Below, in pieces: positions 791 to 44,823 of a stretch of 64,000 nucleotides of DNA (positions are counted from its first letter, which is position 1; every line of letters starts with the position of its first letter). The position numbers were made by a program, and so were the translations under genes. Under the pieces are notes generated by a model. The model did not search any database and had not been told where the DNA came from. It worked only from the letters and a program-made list of their open reading frames with translations. The DNA is from Nitrososphaeria archaeon (GTDB lineage Archaea; Thermoproteota; Nitrososphaeria; JACIWG01). The stretch lies in assembly GCA_050011875.1 (NCBI GenBank), contig JBEKIG010000005.1:1-64000 (forward strand), in the 5' to 3' direction.

Positions 791-849
791 CTTTTTCATT
801 TTTAACTGTTTCGCCAGATTTGACGTATGAAAAGTCTATTGTAAGAAGG

Positions 850-880
850 TTTATTAATCAGATAGAATTATTTTCTGATT
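850..880 (+). promoter_or_regulatory. TATA box with overlapping inverted repeat (likely AbrB operator)
   Basis: tttattaa at 850-857; aatcaga...tctgatt inverted repeat 856-880 upstream of the antitoxin. Confidence 0.5.
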
Positions 881-891
881 GTGAAAAACCC

Positions 892-1119
892 GTGACTGAA
901 AAAGTGAAGGTTGGCATACGTGGACAGGTGGTTATCCCAAAGAAGCTTCGAAAGAAGCTAAACATCGAACATGGCGTCATCCTGGAAATCGAGGAGGCGG
1001 AAGAGGGCCTCATCTTAAAGCCCGTTAATCCGGTTGCGGAAATGAAGGGGTTAGGGGAAGGCGTCTTCGAAGATCCTGTTGAATACCAGAGGAAGCTTCG
1101 CAAGGAATGGGAGACCTGA
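892..1119 (+). CDS. vapB: AbrB/MazE/SpoVT-family antitoxin (VapB)
   Basis: KVGIRGQVVIPKKLRKKLNIEHG motif; overlaps the PIN gene; GTG 892 preferred over 820. Confidence 0.9.
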   Translation: MTEKVKVGIRGQVVIPKKLRKKLNIEHGVILEIEEAEEGLILKPVNPVAEMKGLGEGVFEDPVEYQRKLRKEWET

Positions 1120-1538
1120 AGTGGTTGAAAATAGCCCTAGACACAAACATCCTCATCTACCTTCTCGAAGGCATCGAGCCTTACGCCAGCAAGGTTGAAA
1201 ACCTCCTAAGCTCATTCATGAAAGGAGAGAATCACGGAATAATCTCAACAATAAACGTCGCCGAAATCCTGAACGGTTTCTATAGGGCAAAGGAAGAGAA
1301 AAAAGCGGCAAGGGCGAAAACCCTCCTCCAAGATTTAGCCATTAACGACTTCGAAATAGTCCCTGTCACCTTTGAAATTGCTGATTTAGCCGCACGCCTA
1401 AGGGTAAAGAGGGGAGGAAAACTGCCTGAAGCCCTAATTGTAGCAACAGCAATAAACCAAGCAGCCAGCCTTATCTATTCCCAAGACGAAGACCTCCAAA
1501 GATTCAGCGAAGACATCAAAGTCTCAAAAATAGAATAA
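1107..1538 (+). CDS. vapC: PIN-domain toxin VapC
   Basis: LDTNILIY, VAEIL, LPEALIVATA, YSQDED. Confidence 0.9.
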   Translation: MGDLKWLKIALDTNILIYLLEGIEPYASKVENLLSSFMKGENHGIISTINVAEILNGFYRAKEEKKAARAKTLLQDLAINDFEIVPVTFEIADLAARLRVKRGGKLPEALIVATAINQAASLIYSQDEDLQRFSEDIKVSKIE

Positions 1539-1628
1539 CACCACTTATTGTCACTTCTAACTTATGTTACCCTAAAGTGGGAGATCGATTCTATCCTAAC
1601 ATTTACCAGCAAATAGAACAGACGTCGG

Positions 1629-1859
1629 CTAAACTTCTTTAAGCAAATTCATGAACTCTTCTTTTGTTAATCCTGACTCTTTAATGATCTTAAAGAGCAA
1701 GCCTCTTCCTATTTCTTCTCCTTTATGAACTGGGATTACTATTGTTCTTCCATCATTATGTTTCAATATTACATGACTACCCTTCTGCCTTACTGGTCTA
1801 AAACCGATTTTAGTAAGAGCTTTTATAATCTTATCAGCTGAGGTTGGCTTTAGGCTCAC
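1629..1859 (-). CDS. hicA: HicA-family toxin
   Basis: GFRPVRQKGSHVILKH...IPVH..EIGRGLL. Confidence 0.92.
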   Translation of the reverse strand: MSLKPTSADKIIKALTKIGFRPVRQKGSHVILKHNDGRTIVIPVHKGEEIGRGLLFKIIKESGLTKEEFMNLLKEV

Positions 1860-2076
1860 TTAGCTTTACCTCTATAAACTGCACCCCGACAAACTTACTC
1901 TTACTAGTTGTGGGACCTTCAACTTCTAAGTAAAGGTCGACAGCCTCTTTAACTCTCTCCATAAGCTCATCCAAAGACTTAGCTTGAGTATGACAGCCTG
2001 GAAGCTCTGGAACAGATGCTACATAGTATCCATCTTCATCACTTTCAATGACCACGCTAAGCCTCAAAGTGTTCAC
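1834..2076 (-). CDS. hicB: HicB-family antitoxin
   Basis: DEDGYYVASVPELPGCHTQAKSLDEL. Confidence 0.92.
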   Translation of the reverse strand: MNTLRLSVVIESDEDGYYVASVPELPGCHTQAKSLDELMERVKEAVDLYLEVEGPTTSKSKFVGVQFIEVKLSEPKANLS

Positions 2077-2313
2077 CGTTTATTATAAAACTTTCATCTT
2101 TTATAAACTTTTTAGCAAAAGCTCGAGATGAAGTAACAAATTGTGGAAATCAAAGGGCAAATCAAAGGCGTCATTATTGTCCCCCATTATATGGTCGCAT
2201 ACCTATCAGCGCTATAGGTCCAGCAACAAGATATAACCTAAAAGTTTCCTATACACATCCAAATACATTTGCTTTAGATAAGGGACGGCTCAACTGCGAT
2301 GAATTTGATCTAT

Positions 2314-2359
2314 AAATTACATTGATCCTTAATATTCTGCAAAGGCGTTTAACAATCGT
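2314..2359 (+). repeat. 46-bp imperfect direct repeat, copy 1 (copy 2 at 3252-3297)
   Basis: aaattacattgatccttaatattctgcaaaggcgtttaacaatcgt vs aaattatattgattcttaatatgctgcaaaggtgttaaacaatcgt. Confidence 0.8.
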
Positions 2360-2416
2360 GTATCTAAAAGAAAACTTAAATCCTTCTATTATAATTATTA
2401 AAGACTGTGAATTTTT

Positions 2417-2644
2417 GTGAAGGTAAGTACAAAGGTCAAGGTTACAAAAGAAGGAGTTCTTATTCCTGAAGATCTTTTTAAAGAGATAGTGAGTGCACAC
2501 ATTAAGATGGAACAAATACTAGCTACTTTAGAGACCCTTGCTGATGAGGAAGCACTGAAGACCATTGAAAGGAGCAGAGAAGAAGTATCTAAGGGAGAGT
2601 ACGTTGAATGCTCGATAAATGAGTTAGAGACCGTTTTGAAGTAG
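2417..2644 (+). CDS. Putative antitoxin of the downstream RelE; paralog of 46942-47187
   Basis: ATLETLADEEALKTIERSREEVSKGEYV; directly upstream of a RelE-like sequence. Confidence 0.75.
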   Translation: MKVSTKVKVTKEGVLIPEDLFKEIVSAHIKMEQILATLETLADEEALKTIERSREEVSKGEYVECSINELETVLK

Positions 2645-2645
2645 G

Positions 2646-2895
2646 ATGCCCTACAAAGCTAGGTTCTCAAGAATATTCGTCAAGAAAGAGGAAAACCTAC
2701 CGGGCAACATTAAACAGGGAGTGATCGAAGCTCTAAGGAAATTCTTGTGAATCCTTATATTGGAATTCCACTGGTCGGGAATCTTTCGGGCTTATGGAGG
2801 GTAAGAGTTGGAAAATATAGGATTATTTATGAAATTGATGAAAAAGAGAAAATAGTTGTTTTTCACGATGTTGACTTGAGGAAGAGAATTTATTA
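2646..2895 (+). pseudogene. relE: RelE/ParE-family toxin, frameshifted near 2735
   Basis: MPYKARFSRIFVKK...IEAL, then in another frame EILVNPYIGIPLVGNLSGLWRVRVGKYRIIYEIDEKEKIVVFHDVDLRKRIY*. Confidence 0.85.
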
Positions 2896-2989
2896 AAAAG
2901 TGTGATTAGTCTTTCTGAGTTTCTGCAATGACTTGCGTTATCTGTTTAAACTAACTACGCACGTTAAGCTACTCCTTTCAGAAATCCTT

Positions 2990-3127
2990 GAGCGCGCGCT
3001 AGCGGCGTATGTCTGCAAGAAACTACCAACCCGGGCATTAATGATAATGGTTGGATCATTGATCATATCCTCAAGCATAAGGACCCTATATCTGACTCTA
3101 TCATGGAAGGAAGGAGGACTAAGATAA
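2990..3127 (+). pseudogene. C-terminal fragment resembling a TauE/SafE sulfite exporter
   Basis: LAAYVCKKLPTRALMIMVGSLIISSSIRTL; no plausible N-terminus. Confidence 0.45.
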
Positions 3128-3251
3128 TCCCGGATATATCTGATATGCCTATATCTTAAAGGATTGCGATAGGGCTATGGAGTACGAGACTAAAATGGCT
3201 TTTACCAGCCTATCTGACCTACCTTTTTATACTCCTTAATAACCTTAACAC

Positions 3252-3297
3252 AAATTATATTGATTCTTAATATGCTGCAAAGGTGTTAAACAATCGT
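3252..3297 (+). repeat. 46-bp imperfect direct repeat, copy 2
   Basis: See 2314-2359. Confidence 0.8.
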
Positions 3298-3311
3298 CTT
3301 CTGAGGCCTTT

Positions 3312-3635
3312 CTCTGGGGCTTTGTCAATATGTTGTGTCCCAGATGGCCGTCTGCGTCAACGCCTGCCATCAACGTTAGTCTTCTACCATCATCATCAAT
3401 CATCACCCATCAATCAGCGTTGATCATCCGCCATCATTTGGGCAATTGCCATATTTGACAATAGGGTACCCTATTTCCAGAAAAACCCCTGCTAAATGCC
3501 CCAGAGCAATATAGAAATAGAAAAATAGCATTGTACATGTGCGGATATTTTTTGGGTATTAGCCTTTTTTTGGACATCAGCTTTTTTGTCAAACATTATT
3601 ATAAAATGTTTTTATATAACAATAACGTTATTAAA
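3312..3635. repeat. Non-coding element with nested inverted repeats, CATCA array, 16-bp palindrome and an ATAAC/AAYGTT block
   Basis: ctctggggc 3312 / gccccagag 3498; aatagggtaccctatt 3460-3475; segments homologous to 42369-42396, 9249-9265 and 9308-9336. Confidence 0.75.
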
Positions 3636-3786
3636 TTTGATATTTCTCCCTAAAGTTAAAATCCGTTCGGTTGAAATCTGTTCTATTATGACGGTATGTA
3701 GTAAACGAGGTGCCGATAATCCTATAATTAAGGACTCATCCTGAGCGATTACAGCTCATCAAGGTTTCTCATAGGAGTAATTGTCT

Positions 3787-4293
3787 TCAAGCCTGCTTTT
3801 CTTCCCATTTCCATTCCAATGGATTCTCTACACCTATGAAGCTGTATCTTTTGAAGTGTCCTACATTCTCCGTCCATATAGTGTCAACGTTTCCCTTAGC
3901 GGTGTATGCGAGCACGCAATCGAATATGTCACCGTCAATAACAGACCGTTCCTCAGCCGACTCAAACGTCTCGCAATACGAGGCGGATGTTGGAAGCAGC
4001 TTTGTGATAGCTACGCTCTTGGCATAAAGCATACAGACTTCAGTGGCCTCACGTGGTGTCAGCGGGTTTTTCACCCTTCTCCCAGTCATGACCGAGTAGA
4101 ACTCGGACAGGTTCTGATAAGAAACATAAGCTTTGATTAAGCCGTTTATTGAAGCTTTGACGATGAGGGATGCCTTGTCATAATATTGGCTTAACCGGTC
4201 ATGTGCATAGCATAGGATCATGGTGTCAAGAAGGATTCTCTTTTGAGCATAGACGCTTTGCGAGGCATCCCTGTCGTTAACCAATATCCTCAT
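3787..4293 (-). CDS. vapC: PIN-domain toxin VapC
   Basis: LLDTMILCYA, QNLSEFYS, IFDCVLAYT, IWTEN. Confidence 0.85.
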   Translation of the reverse strand: MRILVNDRDASQSVYAQKRILLDTMILCYAHDRLSQYYDKASLIVKASINGLIKAYVSYQNLSEFYSVMTGRRVKNPLTPREATEVCMLYAKSVAITKLLPTSASYCETFESAEERSVIDGDIFDCVLAYTAKGNVDTIWTENVGHFKRYSFIGVENPLEWKWEEKQA

Positions 4294-4513
4294 AGATTTC
4301 CCTTCTGGTTAACCCCTTTGGCACGCCAATTTCACGAGCGTTCGCCAACGCATCAAGAATCTGCTCCTCAGCAGTTTTCCGTTTCAACTCAACCTTAAAG
4401 CTCTTCTTATCCAAAACCGCCACGGTTAACCTGTCCCCTTCCCTCAGGCCAATCTTCTCCTTAACCTCAGCCGGAACATAAATTTTCTTCTTGCGATAAG
4501 TTGTCTCAACCAA
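4277..4513 (-). CDS. vapB: AbrB-family antitoxin
   Basis: IYVPAEVKEKIGLREGD; C-terminal TRREIYED; overlaps the PIN gene. Confidence 0.85.
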   Translation of the reverse strand: MVETTYRKKKIYVPAEVKEKIGLREGDRLTVAVLDKKSFKVELKRKTAEEQILDALANAREIGVPKGLTRREIYEDIG

Positions 4514-4662
4514 CCCACATCACCTATTAACCAAATAATCAATTACCCATATATAAACGTACCCATGATAAAGAACCATTTTCATCCCTCATCACAGAAA
4601 CTACGTCGACCGAAGCTTGTATTCAGATGTACCAGGAAGATTATGATATATATGGTAAAAAG

Positions 4663-4699
4663 TTTATATAGTATTTTGGCAGTATGGCAATATGGTAAT
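4663..4699 (+). promoter_or_regulatory. TATA box plus short direct repeats (likely RHH operator)
   Basis: tttatata then tggcag/tggcaa/tggtaa repeats before ATG 4705. Confidence 0.45.
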
Positions 4700-4704
4700 A
4701 AAGC

Positions 4705-4983
4705 ATGACGCTACGGGTCCAAATCGACAAGAAACTCGAACAGAAATTTAGAGAACTTGCAATGAAAAGATTTGGCTATGCAAAGGGAGCACTAAGCAAA
4801 GCCGCGGAAGAAGCGTTTACACAATGGACCTCAATGCAGGAAAATGAAAAATTAAGCTTCGAAGGTGACCCCGTAGAAGCCATAGACGGCCTACTTTCAG
4901 ACGTCGACATAGATTCGGTTGAACTTCAACACGAAGCCAAAAAGATCTGGGCGATTAAGGTGCTCAAAAATGCTTCTGGTTGA
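4705..4983 (+). CDS. RHH-like antitoxin (VapB)
   Basis: LEQKFRELAMKRFGYAKGALSKAAEEA...DSVELQHE; coupled to the PIN gene. Confidence 0.8.
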   Translation: MTLRVQIDKKLEQKFRELAMKRFGYAKGALSKAAEEAFTQWTSMQENEKLSFEGDPVEAIDGLLSDVDIDSVELQHEAKKIWAIKVLKNASG

Positions 4984-5386
4984 CACCAACATCATTCTAG
5001 AAGTCCTCCTATCAAGAGCCAAAAAAGAGGAATGCAAGGAATTCTTGAAAACACTTGCGGATGCTAAAAAGAGTGGCATAGTCACAGATTTCACCATCCA
5101 CTCAATAATTGTGATCATGGGTAGCCTTAACAAACTGAATGAACTCAAAACATTCCTCCTGAGCCTACAAGCCTACAAAGGGCTACACATACACCATATA
5201 ACTATAGCAGATGAAGTAAGCGCTATAGAGATCGCGATCCAACAACACCTAGACATGGACGACGCCATCCAATACTCATCTGCTCTTTCAACAAATGCAG
5301 AAGCAATAATATCCTTCGACAAACATTTCGACGGCCTAAAAATACCACGGAAAGAACCACAACTAAATGGGAACCCAAAAGCGTGA
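4970..5386 (+). CDS. vapC: PIN-domain toxin VapC
   Basis: MLLVDTNIILE, LDMDDAIQY, ISFDKHFD. Confidence 0.9.
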   Translation: MLLVDTNIILEVLLSRAKKEECKEFLKTLADAKKSGIVTDFTIHSIIVIMGSLNKLNELKTFLLSLQAYKGLHIHHITIADEVSAIEIAIQQHLDMDDAIQYSSALSTNAEAIISFDKHFDGLKIPRKEPQLNGNPKA

Positions 5387-5425
5387 CGTCCTCCAATGGC
5401 TAAAGCCGTTGGCTTCCAACCTCGC
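5384..5425. mobile_element. IS200/IS605-type terminal hairpin remnant (PATE-like)
   Basis: gtcctCCAATGGC-taaa-GCCGTTGGcttcc resembles the GGC-TAAA-GCC hairpin ends of IS605/IS1341; no transposase adjacent. Confidence 0.55.
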
Positions 5426-5579
5426 AAACATTATTTACTTATTTCCAAGAGCTTGATCATACGAAAATTTTTAGAAAATGAAGGGGTATGGAATGTCTTC
5501 TTCAGATACAAAAAAGAAACTTAGGATTAGTCCTGACTTGCCCAAAAACATATCGTCACGATCGTCTGGTCCATTCCGA

Positions 5580-9248: not shown

Positions 9249-9350
9249 ATGCCCCAGAGCGATATTGCGCGCACGAACAGGAAATTTTTGTCGCGAGCCG
9301 GATGTCTAACGTTATTATATAATGTTTTTATATAACGTTATCATATAATA
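9249..9350 (+). promoter_or_regulatory. Upstream motif block / promoter of the HTH-coiled-coil gene
   Basis: aacgttattatataatgtttttatataac (9308-9336) is 27/29 identical to 3592-3620; contains tttatata. Confidence 0.65.
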
Positions 9351-9358
9351 CTAATATC

Positions 9359-9925
9359 ATGCCAAGGAAAAAAGGGGACGACGACGAGCTGAGGAGGAGG
9401 GCGCTCGAGCTTAGGAGGAAGGGTTTGAGCTACGTGGAAATAGGAAGGCAACTGGGTAGGAGCAGTTACAAGGCTTGGGAGCTTATATCACCGTACGAAA
9501 GCCATCAGCCCAAGATCACACAGGTCGCAGAGCTAGATAAAAGGATAGCCGAATTAAATGGTAGGATAAACGAGCTCACCAAAGTAACCGACGATATAAG
9601 CGCTCAGCTCAAGAAAGTGAAAACAATAAAAGATCTCAGCGAGAGGATGTCTCGGGTTGATAAAGAATTAACAGTCCTCAAAGAAAGCGTTGACTTGTTG
9701 CAGAGGAGTGCAAGTTTTAGGGTTCTTGATTTTGAATGTCACAAGATCGATAAAGACGGCTTCTGTACGTTTTGGTCTTGGGTAGAGGAGATAAAGGGAA
9801 CGAATATGAGAAAATCCAACTATGAGGGAGCAGTTAGATATCAGATGAACGTGAATGAAAATCCGTTAATATGTACTGCATGCCCAAAGTTTGCAAATAG
9901 GAATATAAGTTTAACGAAGACTTGA
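9359..9925 (+). CDS. HTH + coiled-coil + Cys4 (putative Zn) protein
   Basis: ALELRRKGLSYVEIGRQLGRSSYKAWELI helix-turn-helix; heptad region; CHKIDKDGFC...PLICTAC. Confidence 0.85.
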   Translation: MPRKKGDDDELRRRALELRRKGLSYVEIGRQLGRSSYKAWELISPYESHQPKITQVAELDKRIAELNGRINELTKVTDDISAQLKKVKTIKDLSERMSRVDKELTVLKESVDLLQRSASFRVLDFECHKIDKDGFCTFWSWVEEIKGTNMRKSNYEGAVRYQMNVNENPLICTACPKFANRNISLTKT

Positions 9926-40829: not shown

Positions 40830-41339
40830 TACCTATTCGGAAGCTTAAGCGTGTGGAATCTAATAATCAGCCAAGGAAGGACAGAGGTCTACATGAAACT
40901 AAATCTTATATCTGTAGCATTAGGTCTTCCCCTAGGCTTAGTATTGATTCCTAGGCTTGGAATAATCGGCTTAGTCGTAACAGCGCTCATAGACGGAATA
41001 CCAAGCCTGATCGCGATGCTCTGGTACGTTGGAAGGCATTATGCAGCAACAGTAGACTGGGTGTCTTCAACAAAAATACTTTCAGCCTCCACAATCTCCG
41101 CCCTAGCCGCATACCTCATCTTATCCCAGCTGTCTCTTCCAAGCTGGATGGAACTTATCATCGGAGCCACAGTCTTTCTAACAGCATACATAACAGTAGC
41201 CTCACTCATAGGAGCAGTAAACAGGACAGACATCGAAAACATAAAAGAGATGCTGAAAGAACTTGGCCCATTATCAAAGTTGCTCAGCCCACCATTAAAC
41301 CTCATCGAAAAACGGATGCTGAAAATCCATAAGACTTGA
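40830..41339 (+). pseudogene. Polysaccharide flippase C-terminal fragment
   Basis: LIISQGRT...LIPRLGIIGL; N-terminal part missing. Confidence 0.7.
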
Positions 41340-41477
41340 CACAAAGCGCGCACGCAGCCCCACAAAGCACAGAAACTAAGCTTCTTTATTATGGCGTTGG
41401 TTATGGCAAATCAAAGGGCACCTTCATTATCCCCATTTCTGACATTTTCACCCCAACCCCTTAAAGACCGTTAAAGA

Positions 41478-41950
41478 ACTCGTAACTCGTAAATTTACGC
41501 GCACATATCAGTTTAACTGGGAAAAGAGGGAAACAAGCGTAAAATAAAGGTAAGTGCCTTAAACTGCTTCATGCAATTACGGAAAGCTTGGCGTAATTTA
41601 CGCCATTTACGACACTTTACGACAGCGTAAAAAGTTTACGTGTTTTACGTAATTACGGCATTTTACGCAGCGTAAAAAAAAGTTTTACGACATTTTACGA
41701 TCTTTACGACGATTTTACGGGGCGTAAAATATGGGTTTACGATGTTCTATGTGCGCGTAAAAGTCATTTTACGGCGACGTAAAAAAAAGTTTACGATGAT
41801 TTTACGACATTTTACGGCGACGTAAAAAAAAGTTTACGATGATTTTACGAGGTCGTAAAGGCTCTTACGGGAATTTACGGGACGTAAAAGACTGGGTTAC
41901 GGTATTTTGTATGCTCGTAAAAATCATTTTACGGGCCAGTTTACGGGAAA
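41478..41950. repeat. Dense helically phased TTACG/CGTAA array with a perfect 43-bp tandem duplication
   Basis: About 25 TTACG and about 14 CGTAA by hand count; 41765-41807 equals 41808-41850. Confidence 0.95.
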
Positions 41951-42280
41951 TTTTATGGTCGATAAAAAAAGTTTATAGGATTTTATGGGACTATAGGCTT
42001 TAGGTTATAAAGGCTCTGATTTAACTAAACCTATTAGATGAGCCTTACTTTTTTTTGATTATTTATCTTAAACTTATAATCTTCTGAACTGCTCCCTAGT
42101 CGAGCCTCTATATCTTTTTGTTTATCCCGACAAGTTGACAGAATCCTATAAACTATAAAATAAAGGCGCTTAAGAGTTTAGCTGGGAACAGAGGGTAAAT
42201 AGGGGAAAATATAGGAAACTGTTAAGAACGCTTCATGGGGTTAAGCACTTTAATAAGGGAATAAAAAAGGTATGCACATG

Positions 42281-42396
42281 TCATCATCAGTCATCATCAA
42301 CGGTCATCATCAGCCATCAACACCCGTCATCAGCCATCATCAGCCATCATCAGCCATCATCAGCCATCATCAGCGTTCATCGTTCGTCATCATTTG
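42281..42396 (+). repeat. 10-bp tandem array CAGCCATCAT
   Basis: Four perfect copies 42331-42370 flanked by degenerate copies. Confidence 0.95.
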
Positions 42397-42461
42397 ACCA
42401 GTTGACGTGGTTGACGCCAAACTTATATTCTACTCTAATGATATGGTATCATTGGCAGAAG

Positions 42462-43991
42462 ATGGAAACTGTTGAAAATATAGTCAGGAAGCTTCTTGAT
42501 CTTGCCAAGAAGAAGCCGCTTGGGCCTGAAGAGCTAGAGGAAGCGAAAGAATGCATGAGGATCCTTCGGCGAAATGGTTTTACAAGCTACGAAATATCCG
42601 AATTAAGTGGTCACGCTTGGGACGCGTCGACGGTGAGAAATTATGTGGTCGGCGTCAAGGTTGTGGACTCTAAGGCCAGAGCTAGGGTAATCGGCCTGTT
42701 CGTCAAAACGATGGAGGAAGATCTCTACCTTGACGAAGTGGATGGGGCCCTTTCCATAAAGTCATCTTTGGACCGAGAGGGAGCTAACATAGAAGACTTC
42801 GCCGGTCTACTGAAGTTAGCGAAAGGTTCGAAGGTCAGCTCAGGCGAGCTGGTAAAGATGTACAATGATTTAAAAGCTTCAAACCTCAACGTTGACCAGC
42901 TAAAACAGGTACTGGAATATAAACTGGGCTTTGAATCATCCAAACTGACATTGGACAACCTAAAGAAAATACGGGACCTGTTGATAAAATTTGGTAGGTT
43001 TAACGATGTCGTAGAAGCCATAACGGCCTACGTCGATCTCAAAGCGCTTAAACAGGAAGTTGAAGACATAAGCCTGGAAAAAACTTCTCGAGAATCAGAA
43101 GTTAAAATGTTAACTAAAGAAATCCTTATTCTTAATAACAAGAAAGAAGAGCTTAAGGCCCCATTTAGCAGATTGGAGCATCTAAGAGGAATAGGCTTTA
43201 ATGATGCAACTCTAGTTGGATTAGCTAAAGCCTGTGATAAGCTAGGTGGTGTAGATGCTGTCCTGAAGGCGGTTGACAGCTTCTCTGACCAGAGGGTGAT
43301 AGAGGCAAGAACCTCTGAACTAGAACGTGTCATGGAAAACCTGGAAATCAAGATAAAGAGATTGGATGTGGAAAACTCTCAGATAATTGAAGGCGTGAGA
43401 ACGTGCAGGGAGCTGATCTTCACCCATGGGTTCAATACAGGTGACATCGTAGGTGTGATGACAGCTGCCAAGAGGTATGGTAACTCAATAGATGTGCTAA
43501 GGGCGGTTGAAGACTATGGCAAGCTTAAGGCCATCCAAGATAAGGTCAACGAACTAGAGGGCTTAAAAGGAGGACTTGAGAAAGAGATAGTACAGCAGAA
43601 GGAAGAAACTAAAGACCTACGTCAAAAGGAGGAAGCCCTAACTAGGGGGGTAAGGGATTACTCCAACCAACGAGATGCTCTCAGGAAAAACGCGGATAAA
43701 TTTGATGAAGAGCTTAGAGAGGCAAAGGTGTTCTTGGCTCTAAGAAGGTACCCTTCGGAGCTGAAGATAGACAGCCTGCAATATTTGGCTCAGGCGATCA
43801 GAAGCTTGGCCACAAACGCTAAGAGCCTTGGAATAAACCAGACGTTCACGCTTAAGGATATCGTTGAGCCAAAACACAAAATCATAAACTTCACGTGGAA
43901 GATAGAGCTTTCGGATGTTCTAGGCTGGGCGAACACGGCCCTGACAACGATCATCGTGAAAACATCGCTGAATCCATCAGGTGCCAGATAA
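42462..43991 (+). CDS. HTH + long coiled-coil protein
   Basis: GFTSYEISELSGHAWDASTVRNYV; heptad repeats; TATA-like cttatatt at ~42423 supports ATG 42462. Confidence 0.8.
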   Translation: METVENIVRKLLDLAKKKPLGPEELEEAKECMRILRRNGFTSYEISELSGHAWDASTVRNYVVGVKVVDSKARARVIGLFVKTMEEDLYLDEVDGALSIKSSLDREGANIEDFAGLLKLAKGSKVSSGELVKMYNDLKASNLNVDQLKQVLEYKLGFESSKLTLDNLKKIRDLLIKFGRFNDVVEAITAYVDLKALKQEVEDISLEKTSRESEVKMLTKEILILNNKKEELKAPFSRLEHLRGIGFNDATLVGLAKACDKLGGVDAVLKAVDSFSDQRVIEARTSELERVMENLEIKIKRLDVENSQIIEGVRTCRELIFTHGFNTGDIVGVMTAAKRYGNSIDVLRAVEDYGKLKAIQDKVNELEGLKGGLEKEIVQQKEETKDLRQKEEALTRGVRDYSNQRDALRKNADKFDEELREAKVFLALRRYPSELKIDSLQYLAQAIRSLATNAKSLGINQTFTLKDIVEPKHKIINFTWKIELSDVLGWANTALTTIIVKTSLNPSGAR

Positions 43992-43992
43992 C

Positions 43993-44823
43993 ATGAGCTT
44001 GGAAAAGATCGAACAGCATATAAAGGAACTTGAAGCGCTAAAATACTATAGCGGAACCAAGCAGGAAAGAGATGAAGCTTTGAAAAAAGTAGGCGAACTA
44101 GAGAGCGTCAAGACCGAACTAGAGAAAAGGATAGCCGACCTTGAGCAGATAAAGGTTACTTCAGAGGGGAAGACGATAAAGGAAGCCGAAGAAGCCTTCC
44201 TAAGGGCTGAGCAAGAGGAGATAAGCAGAAAAGCTGAAGAAAAGTCCAACGAAAAATATGAGAAATGGCGAAAGGATGAGAAACCTAAGGAGGTATTCGA
44301 TTCGTCTGTCAAAGAGCTCAAGACGATCCTGCAAAGCCTATCTGAAGCCCCATACCAAGCAATTCCTTCTAAGTTGGCACAGGCCGGATTAGATGTTGAA
44401 GTTAAGAAGGCATTAAATGTAGAAGTTCAGAAAAGGTTACATGTGGAATTCAATAAGAGAGTCGAAGCGAGGGCGCACGAAACCGCTTTAAAATGGTTCG
44501 AAAATTGGAAGAAATCTGAGTTAAATAGATGGCATAATGAAAAAATAATGCCTGAAATAGCAAGATTGGAAACAGTCTTCAGCTCAAACATCATGACCGT
44601 ATTGAGGGACACCGACTTCGAAATAACCTGTAACAAATGTGACCAAATATCTCAGATAAAATTTACAGGTCAAATGATTTCAAACCTAATCACAAAAGGG
44701 AAATCCAATTTGCCATGCATCAACCCTAACTGCAACGACCCATGGACAGGCAGACATCAGATTCAGATCAACCTCGCAGATCTCATAGATTCCATGATAA
44801 CGCTCAAGAGTGGATATCCATAA
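43993..44823 (+). CDS. Coiled-coil protein with C-terminal Zn finger
   Basis: Coupled to the upstream gene; CNKC...CINPNC...H. Confidence 0.8.
   Translation: MSLEKIEQHIKELEALKYYSGTKQERDEALKKVGELESVKTELEKRIADLEQIKVTSEGKTIKEAEEAFLRAEQEEISRKAEEKSNEKYEKWRKDEKPKEVFDSSVKELKTILQSLSEAPYQAIPSKLAQAGLDVEVKKALNVEVQKRLHVEFNKRVEARAHETALKWFENWKKSELNRWHNEKIMPEIARLETVFSSNIMTVLRDTDFEITCNKCDQISQIKFTGQMISNLITKGKSNLPCINPNCNDPWTGRHQIQINLADLIDSMITLKSGYP

Follow-up and report, generated by a model that had tools for sequence, protein, structure and literature searches.

A gene-less repeat locus in a Nitrososphaeria archaeon is probably a decayed copy of the control region of a two-gene cassette

Positions 3312 to 3635 of contig JBEKIG010000005.1, from a Nitrososphaeria archaeon (assembly GCA_050011875.1, hereafter G000; 2.64 Mb in 119 contigs), hold tandem CATCA repeats, palindromes and promoter-like sequence without a gene to go with them, which raises the question of what such a locus is. 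The window analysed comprises the first 64,000 nt of this contig (G000:C5:1-64000). A first-pass annotation had taken the locus for a gene-less element joining the upstream signatures of two families of helix-turn-helix (HTH) coiled-coil proteins, referred to here as family A (gene at 9359) and family B (gene at 42462), and had proposed that a non-autonomous or relic copy of one element family links both places into a single system. Positions 3250-3760 were searched by blastn against genome G000 and 41 related genomes, and copies were compared in an alignment of nine and in a block-by-block module matrix against eleven. The explanation which we consider quite probable is that 3252-3633 represents a paralogue, now decayed, of the 5' control region that belongs to a two-gene cassette consisting of a small winged helix-turn-helix (wHTH) open reading frame (ORF) and family A. 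Sequence comparison directly established the homology, both breakpoints, how the copies are built from modules, and that the promoter repeats are conserved across the family.

The real extent of the relic proved to be 3252-3633, its left end lying ~60 nt farther left than first annotated. The segment 3252-3620 aligned in one piece with G000:C16:27650-28056 (79.6% identity over 412 columns), and further partial alignments were obtained with C5:64549-64267 (minus strand) and with five places in G001, a genome of the same genus; no homology was detected in the other 39 of the 41 related genomes. Homology over the whole length, with modules common to C16 and 10 further copies, fits the relic of a paralogue. 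Several copies lead into family A genes in various states of preservation: a decayed gene at C16, which has lost its ATG and is recognisable only over amino acids 43-97 (76-78% identical, one TAA stop), truncated genes at C5:64549-64083 (minus strand, amino acids 1-56) and at G001:C12:150.7k (amino acids 1-41, with stops), and a full-length gene at G001:C14 (66% identical). These downstream genes indicate that the array belongs to the family A upstream region. G000 shows four upstream regions of family A type, of which three have an array, and so do all five copies found in G001, paralogous array copies not being independent events; the array-less exception in G000 is the 9359 copy, while the fifth paralogue (3-515) runs off the contig start and its upstream region is not visible. 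On this comparison the CATCA array is native to the family A upstream region and would have been lost from the 9359 copy. The idea of an element joining the signatures of both families was therefore abandoned, and that of a relic copy of one element family was retained, given the end-to-end homology with upstream regions of family A paralogues and the loss of both cassette genes at this place.

The relic and its immediate surroundings comprise the following features:

2314-2359, plus strand: second copy of the first 46 nt of the left arm, 89% identical, 938 nt upstream
3252-3365, plus strand: left arm of the conserved unit, where the homology with C16 begins
3272-3283, plus strand: ATGCTGCAAAGG, a 12-mer within the left arm
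~3366-3440, plus strand: CATCA array of 10-nt period, its inner part differing among copies and its 3' end conserved
3441-3450, no strand: palindrome GGCAATTGCC, the spacer around it partly conserved in 4 of 11 copies
3460-3475, no strand: palindrome AATAGGGTACCCTATT, found as an inverted repeat, with a motif check against shuffles
3474-3481, plus strand: junction lacking the small wHTH ORF, flanked by two blocks matching locus L046
3476-3568, plus strand: V1-type middle region, carrying ATGCCCCAGAGCAATAT and the right inverted-repeat arm 3495-3509
3569-3633, plus strand: promoter-proximal family A region, with a degenerate copy of the 13-nt AACGTTAT repeat and the TATA-like TTTTTATATAA
3634-3786, no strand: unrelated sequence in place of the family A coding region, with no credible ORF

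Modules follow one another in the order left arm, variable array, conserved array end, spacer, palindrome, a middle region of form V1 or V2, and promoter-proximal block. Module sets differ among the copies of the eleven-copy matrix, making them mosaics. The left arm has 82 of its 114 bases in common with C16 and 63 with G001:C12:88k, and its ATGCTGCAAAGG recurs ~100 nt upstream of the distant family A homologues L019 and L064 (L-numbers denote 49 metagenome and 3 genome loci fetched around family A homologues). The array end ATCAGCGTTGATCATCCGCCATCATTTG at 3413-3440 gave one match against none in 100 shuffles; over these 28 nt, 8 of 11 copies agree with the relic at 19-28 positions, and a ninth, L046, at 14. 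Palindrome AATAGGGTACCCTATT retains 15-16 of 16 bases in 6 of 11 copies (12/16 in L046), and TAGGGTACCCTA occurs four times genome-wide, three of them in family A-type units. In the V1 region identity reaches 90/93 with C16 and 70/93 with G001:C12:1.7k. ATGCCCCAGAGCAATAT at 3496-3512, together with a 1-mismatch copy at 9249-9265, gave two matches, a number reached by none of 100 shuffles. The promoter-proximal block has 31-50 of 65 bases in common with 8 of 11 copies, and the putative TATA box TTTTTATATAA at 3609-3619 is found unchanged in the intact 9359 copy. A 29-mer at 3592-3620 matches 9308-9336 in 27 of 29 positions (31/34 for 3587-3620 versus 9303-9336 by a repeat-finding tool). In the relic, the first AACGTT of the promoter repeats is changed to AACATT and the repeat register is disturbed.

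All motifs described in the first-pass annotation lay where it had placed them, or within a few bases. The objection that they are low-complexity background does not hold, given that the three shuffle-tested motifs are not due to chance and that strict CATCA arrays number only five in the genome (eight with looser ones from Tandem Repeats Finder, TRF). As for the nested inverted repeats, the outer pair (3309-3323/3495-3509, 13 of 15 positions complementary) was confirmed, whereas the inner pair (~3321-3330/3451-3461) forms only with a 1-nt bulge, appearing in the minimum-free-energy fold and unlisted by the gap-free tool. The word GGGTACCC occurs 13 times in the genome against ~81 expected for uniform base use, with 3 of the 13 in family A-type units; this scarcity may reflect avoidance of a restriction site.

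What the relic would once have preceded can be seen in metagenome locus L046, whose family A protein is 75% identical and where array, palindrome, small wHTH ORF, V1, promoter and family A follow one another:

L046 290-325: array
L046 349-362: palindrome
L046 381-815: small ORF of 144 aa with a weak winged-helix match only (WH_Rok, E 0.007, below cut-off)

Relic 3423-3474 matches L046 311-362 at 90%, and 3481-3633 matches 908-1067 at 82%; the intervening 363-907, including the 144-aa ORF, has no counterpart. Since the relic matches only the two blocks flanking the small ORF, this ORF appears to have been lost by internal deletion, and family A from its first codon on. At the second junction (3633/3634) the homology ends immediately before the start codon of family A in L046, where the family A match starts at 1067. 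Coding sequence is thus absent at the relic, with definable breakpoints. The L046 layout also explains the two middle forms: V2 copies retain just amino acids 20-66 of the small ORF, and V1 copies, the relic included, nothing of it. No family A remnant was detected in 3600-3800 (tblastn at E<=50, blastn at E<=10), and the sole plus-strand ORF after the relic is a 52-aa TTG frame (3586-3744), in agreement with the first-pass statement that no ORF follows.

The second line of evidence concerns the promoter of family A, of which the window contains two intact genes, the copy at 3-515 and the following:

9359-9925, plus strand: intact family A gene, 188 aa, with promoter repeats at 9303-9358 and no array

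The protein consists of an N-terminal HTH, one long (70-residue) helix or coiled coil, and a beta-rich domain with four invariant cysteines. Its own Pfam matches fall below threshold, relatives pass the cut-offs for HTH_23 and HTH_38, and no Pfam model covers the C-terminal 4-Cys domain. An AlphaFold model (mean pLDDT 68.9) gave nothing at E<=0.001 in a Foldseek search against PDB, just small HTH domains, and searches of PHROGs and PADLOC with family A, family B and neighbouring proteins gave only low-scoring coiled-coil matches. A word-indexed search yielded 14 homologous proteins, and an exhaustive profile search 443 cluster representatives at E<=1e-3 (25 at E<=1e-30). In the intact gene the ATG lies ~25 nt after the TATA-like box. 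Of 23 distinct upstream regions (six exact duplicates removed; homologues spanning 23-100% identity), 14 had ACG[CT]T repeats in phase, at intervals of 12-14 or 25-27 nt, in the last 90 nt ahead of the start, compared to 39 of 2000 random control windows of the same loci. The 29-mer common to the relic and the 9359 copy is, judging from this comparison, a portion of the family-wide 13-nt phased repeat overlapping the TATA-like box. Palindromes of the GGGTACCC type also occur upstream of family A in L044, L046, L048, L057 and L058, and a G/C-core palindrome, GGGGCCCC, upstream of the distant homologues L019 and L064. A 23-nt repeat (91% identical) coding for ELDKRIA-like residues was additionally seen at 114-136, 9530-9552 and 44116-44138, that is, in both family A genes and in a 280-aa gene (43981-44823) downstream of family B, which also has a Cys-rich end.

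Distant members of the family point to a plasmid. Loci L057 and L058 are circular permutations of one contig, present as two metagenome records, and the 123-nt terminal overlap of L058 closes a 2081-nt circle. As judged from its ORFs, this circle encodes a rolling-circle Rep (PF23343, 33.7 bits against a cut-off of 27.8; phrog_12863, 9e-19) and a family A homologue (26% identical, E 1e-29, four of four cysteines kept), and its intergenic region contains an extended palindrome, a CATCA and phased repeats. The same intergenic region holds a CTTGATA, which we take to resemble the nick site of pC194-type plasmids. L050 likewise pairs family A with this Rep, and other distant family A loci have NikA-like, P-loop ATPase and topoisomerase-like neighbours. 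These associations suggest that the cassette is of plasmid-like origin and is now scattered in the chromosome.

Taken together, a course of events can be proposed. In its full form the cassette would comprise, in order, a CATCA array, a GGGTACCC-core palindrome, a small winged-helix ORF, a V1 spacer, a promoter with 13-nt AACGTTAT repeats, and family A, and would derive from a plasmid-like element. The 13-nt repeats over the TATA box would serve as the operator of the family A protein itself (autoregulation) in a promoter with little or no leader, and the palindrome and helically phased CATCA repeats as protein-docking sites for the upstream half of the cassette. At the relic, an internal deletion would have removed the small ORF, and unrelated sequence would have replaced family A from the start codon on, reaching a convergent VapBC-like pair. 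The relic itself is most likely non-functional, or at most an orphan promoter or binding site.

The family B locus, with which the first-pass annotation had linked the relic, has these features:

42272-42395, plus strand: CATCA array before the family B gene, period 10, 9 copies
42462-43991, plus strand: family B gene, 509 aa

This array ends ~30 nt before a TATA-like box, and its last 28 nt agree with those of the relic at 24 positions; by blastn, 3366-3459 aligned with 42313-42415 at 71% over 103 nt (E 3e-8), so that the two loci have in common the array and ~25 nt beyond it. No detectable relation between the family A and family B proteins was found by hhalign (probability 10%). Family B paralogues are present in C18, C17, C3 and G001. 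Upstream of the C18 gene, a CATCA-type array lies at a distance of 1.5 kb, past two ORFs on the opposite strand. Arrays at C3 are built of different motifs (TGCACC, ATTGCCTTT), and C17 lacks a CATCA array, a short 10-nt-period array of another motif lying ~1 kb upstream; in G001 a CATCA array accompanies one of three paralogues. The distance from array to promoter accordingly ranges from ~30 nt (family B) and 170-250 nt (family A) to 1.5 kb (C18). A homologue search with family B returned one relative besides the query among 8000 candidates scored, and upstream relics of family B type persist as well (e.g. C3:17372-17524). In G001 a gene-less V1-type unit lies directly after the homologue of window 41180-41361, syntenic with the array position at 42 kb, and for this reason the shared array looks like a module moved by recombination, which is no proof of a common protein system. 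Of the proposed single system, then, the common array and ~25 nt remain; the proteins show no detectable homology and three of eight arrays adjoin neither family, so that the proposal is weakly supported.

A divergent gene of 255-309 aa often lies ahead of family B paralogues (C18:4100-5029, minus strand; C17:3155-3922, plus strand), and the C18 gene, the one scanned, gave weak Csa3/CasR-like HTH matches in PADLOC (best E 1e-5). A ~120-nt module with the core CTGGGAACAGAGGGTAAATAAGGG has 15 genome copies, often beside arrays of 10-11-nt repeats; no consensus structure was obtained on either strand by RNAalifold for the 15-copy GGGAACAG module. Its sites include:

Window: 42140-42260, 41510-41573
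G000: C14:72959, C14:74004, C3:24932, C3:17524, C11:18100, C5:133692
G000: C6:7139/5441/5817, C18:17300/3537, C4:3983/1794

Other 10-11-nt-spaced arrays have different cores (TTTACG, TGCACC, ATTGCCTTT, CTTAAC, CTTTATAG and others), and TRF rows with a period of 10-11 and at least 3.4 copies number 34. Such arrays were located at:

Window: 41658-41850
G000: C3:143214-143490, C16:28691-28773, C6:5295-6109, C11:17383-17768, C2:144140-144315
G001: C14 (L013, reverse strand, ~9650-9780)

The array block at C6:5295-6109 extends over 800 nt; an ORF of 195 aa next to it includes an HTH-like stretch, GLGYREISERTF. A third non-coding repeat element combines a CATCAAC/GTCAAC array with a GACAGATGCCCCAGACAAG stretch and, in some copies, a CTTAAC array; its ATGCCCCAGA word is also present in the relic, and one copy adjoins type I restriction-modification genes, judged by reading an HsdM-like N-terminus. 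Its sites are:

G000: C16:16950-17420, C22:4474-4949, C30:4040-4308
G000: C7:114137-114355, C14:52682-52899, C12:52487-52628

The relic sits inside an island of toxin-antitoxin genes (820-5386):

820-1538: MazE/PIN
1629-2076, minus strand: HicBA
2417-2896: ParE-type
3787-4513, minus strand: convergent VapBC-like pair (PIN 3787-4293, MazE/AbrB-type 4277-4513)
4705-5386: PIN pair

The 153 nt after the relic are unrelated and run into the convergent PIN/MazE-type pair, for which Pfam matches are weak and below curated cut-offs (PIN_3, E 0.002; MazE_antitoxin, E 3e-4). A ParE_toxin match at 2747-2896 scores 30.8 bits against a 23-bit cut-off. Between the two copies of the 46-nt direct repeat 2314-2359/3252-3297 (89%) lies a 938-nt segment that includes this fragment of a ParE-type toxin (2747-2896) and, at 2417-2644, a candidate antitoxin; the repeat may be the trace of an insertion or of two left arms having recombined. 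Among the sequencing runs listed as containing this DNA, none was an RNA run. Contigs from four runs labelled as peat metagenomes were placed on window 1500-5500. Assembly breaks at the relic repeat, and in contigs of two runs depth over 3376-3643 is ~3x that of the flanks. One contig (run X4) joins 2669 to 3728 with 36 other letters between, including AACGTTATCATAT (depth 2.1, side 38). As a single low-depth contig of a diverged relative, with ends differing from those of the unit, it is too weak to serve as an empty site.

A number of observations weigh against the relic reading or parts of it. Assigning operator function to the motifs draws on conservation and analogy. Arrays of the CATCA type also front the unrelated family B, and of the eight in G000 three lie in family A-type units, two upstream of family B and three beside neither, meaning that the protein binding the array need not be a cassette protein. 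Nor is the array general to family A: among 26 metagenome upstream regions clear CATCA arrays were seen only in L044 and L046 (74-75% identical), with a short one in L048 (37%), and the feature is confined to the close clade of G000, G001, L044 and L046. No intact small wHTH ORF was found in G000, though arrays are well kept there, no homologue of the plasmid Rep was detected in G000 by tblastn, and no Rep, integrase or other mobile-element hallmark was identified among the 58 window ORFs against Pfam. In addition, three gene-less or gene-decayed copies have non-coding modules 80-88% identical, which could point to selection instead of simple decay.

The last observation leads to an unlikely alternative that partly overlaps with the decayed-copy explanation, namely that the locus is a selected, gene-less orphan platform of iterons or operators, bound in trans by family A proteins from the 9359 and 3-515 copies. 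Its role could be that of a decoy or of a site for pairing or partition, or it could silence or activate genes nearby. Compatible with this are the two family A genes still intact in the window, the persistence of family B-type upstream relics, the well-kept palindrome, and the retention of array end, palindrome and V1 at 70-100% identity in the relic, C16 and G001:C12:1.7k; against it stand the AACATT change and disturbed register at the relic, the lack of a partition NTPase or Rep gene nearby, and the consideration that a single ancestor, already carrying the deletion, may recently have given rise to all three V1-type copies by duplication. In a wider and unlikely form, CATCA arrays and palindrome would be transferable docking platforms from small rolling-circle-plasmid cassettes, outliving their genes via trans-binding family A proteins and wiring scattered loci into one regulatory or DNA-pairing network. 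Such a network, if real, would take in gene-less sites such as the relic as well as the operon of the unrelated family B at 42 kb, and the other-core arrays in the genome would be analogous platforms for other factors. Activity of the locus could alternatively be limited to its promoter, still firing from a start near 3640 antisense into the VapBC-like pair and regulating that toxin-antitoxin module; the TTTTTATATAA box is identical to that of the 9359 copy, the transcript would begin just past the junction and the PIN gene on the opposite strand ends at 3787, but position is the sole basis for this reading, the accompanying upstream repeat is mutated and nothing comparable occurs at other relics, making it improbable.

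Spread of the two upstream signatures by a non-autonomous element bounded by inverted repeats, akin to a miniature inverted-repeat transposable element, was also proposed in the first-pass annotation. Multiple copies in two genomes of the genus, the ~3x depth, a real inverted repeat at 3309-3323/3495-3509, and the different placement of family A units relative to shared flanking genes in G000 and G001 speak in its favour. However, the inverted repeats are internal, with C16 homology extending past the left arm by 57 nt and past the right arm by 124 nt, and copies are mosaics of differing modules without common ends; those at C5:64k, G001:C14 and G001:C12:150k lack both arms yet possess array, palindrome and promoter. 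Target duplication was not seen on reading the ends by eye, without a formal test, the left end being fuzzy, and the sole hint of an empty site is the 2669-3728 joint, whose ends are not those of the unit. The claim was consequently rejected, and we regard such an element as quite improbable here. Least credible, and hardly tenable, is the reading as a non-coding RNA whose structure would be a long stem, built of the nested inverted repeats and enclosing the array. Folding of 3300-3520 gave z-scores of -2.3 (plus strand) and -2.8 (minus strand), yet there is no covariation support, the inner stem is not kept in C16, where two 3'-arm changes are uncompensated, intact-gene copies lack both outer arms, and array length varies freely. 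Over the whole window Rfam gave 0 matches at gathering thresholds, and ARAGORN predicted 0 tRNA or tmRNA genes.

If the relic is a decayed control region, known systems offer comparisons. According to PMC4027180, ORF80 (pRN1) and Stf76 (pSSVx) are Sulfolobus plasmid proteins that bind helically phased TTAA-N7-TTAA in their own promoters, one site overlapping the B recognition element (BRE), with cooperative binding and autoregulation proposed. The likeness lies in small plasmid-encoded DNA-binding proteins with short motifs about one helical turn apart before their own gene; family A has 13-nt phased repeats over a TATA-like box (14/23 upstream regions versus 39/2000 controls, as above) and a homologue on a 2.08-kb rolling-circle plasmid. 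Architecture, rather than sequence comparison, sets the two apart: ORF80 and Stf76 are winged-helix proteins of 76-80 aa, whereas family A, at ~190 aa, has a transposase/resolvase-type HTH, a 70-residue helix and a 4-Cys beta domain. The distal CATCA array and palindrome are extra here, and binding by family A is putative.

Plasmid iteron arrays and parC centromeres (ParR/parC of R1) are likewise tandem repeats of about one helical turn in variable number, upstream of the gene for a DNA-binding protein, and their defining partner genes encode Rep for iteron origins and an NTPase for ParR/parC. CATCA repeats resemble them in being tandem, helically spaced at period 10 and variable in copy number, and differ in a unit of just 10 nt with a 5-nt core and in a varying distance to the promoter. 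No adjacent Rep was found by Pfam among the 58 window ORFs or beside any array examined, and no partition NTPase (ParA, ParM, TubZ) in the window or among array neighbours. Cryptic integrated elements of Thaumarchaeota, as described by Krupovic et al. 2019 (PMC6563490), are small, with (w)HTH and toxin-antitoxin genes and, in one case, a rolling-circle Rep. The host lineage label is the same and the relic lies in a toxin-antitoxin-rich island; those elements are bounded by att sites and have an integrase, whereas no integrase, att pair or Rep was found around the relic. An ordinary pseudogene or solo-promoter relic is approached in that homology is limited to the paralogue upstream region, coding sequence is deleted and C16 is at an intermediate stage of decay. 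It differs in that non-coding modules are better kept than genes in several copies, and recombine into new arrangements, one of them before an unrelated gene family.

Taken alone, the relic is an ordinary decayed paralogue, and the family behind it is a variation on the theme of the plasmid self-regulator. The relic itself changes little; its value is as a lead to the two-gene cassette and to family A, with a C-terminal domain for which there is no Pfam model. Only in one respect could something less ordinary be hidden here, namely in the way non-coding modules persist and are reshuffled after their genes have gone. Family A combines conserved cis-elements with a link to a 2.08-kb rolling-circle plasmid, in a host belonging to an uncultured soil and peat lineage in which plasmids are almost unknown. 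Should the phased repeats prove to be operators, Archaea would have a second case, unrelated to the first, of plasmid self-regulation in the style of ORF80/Stf76.

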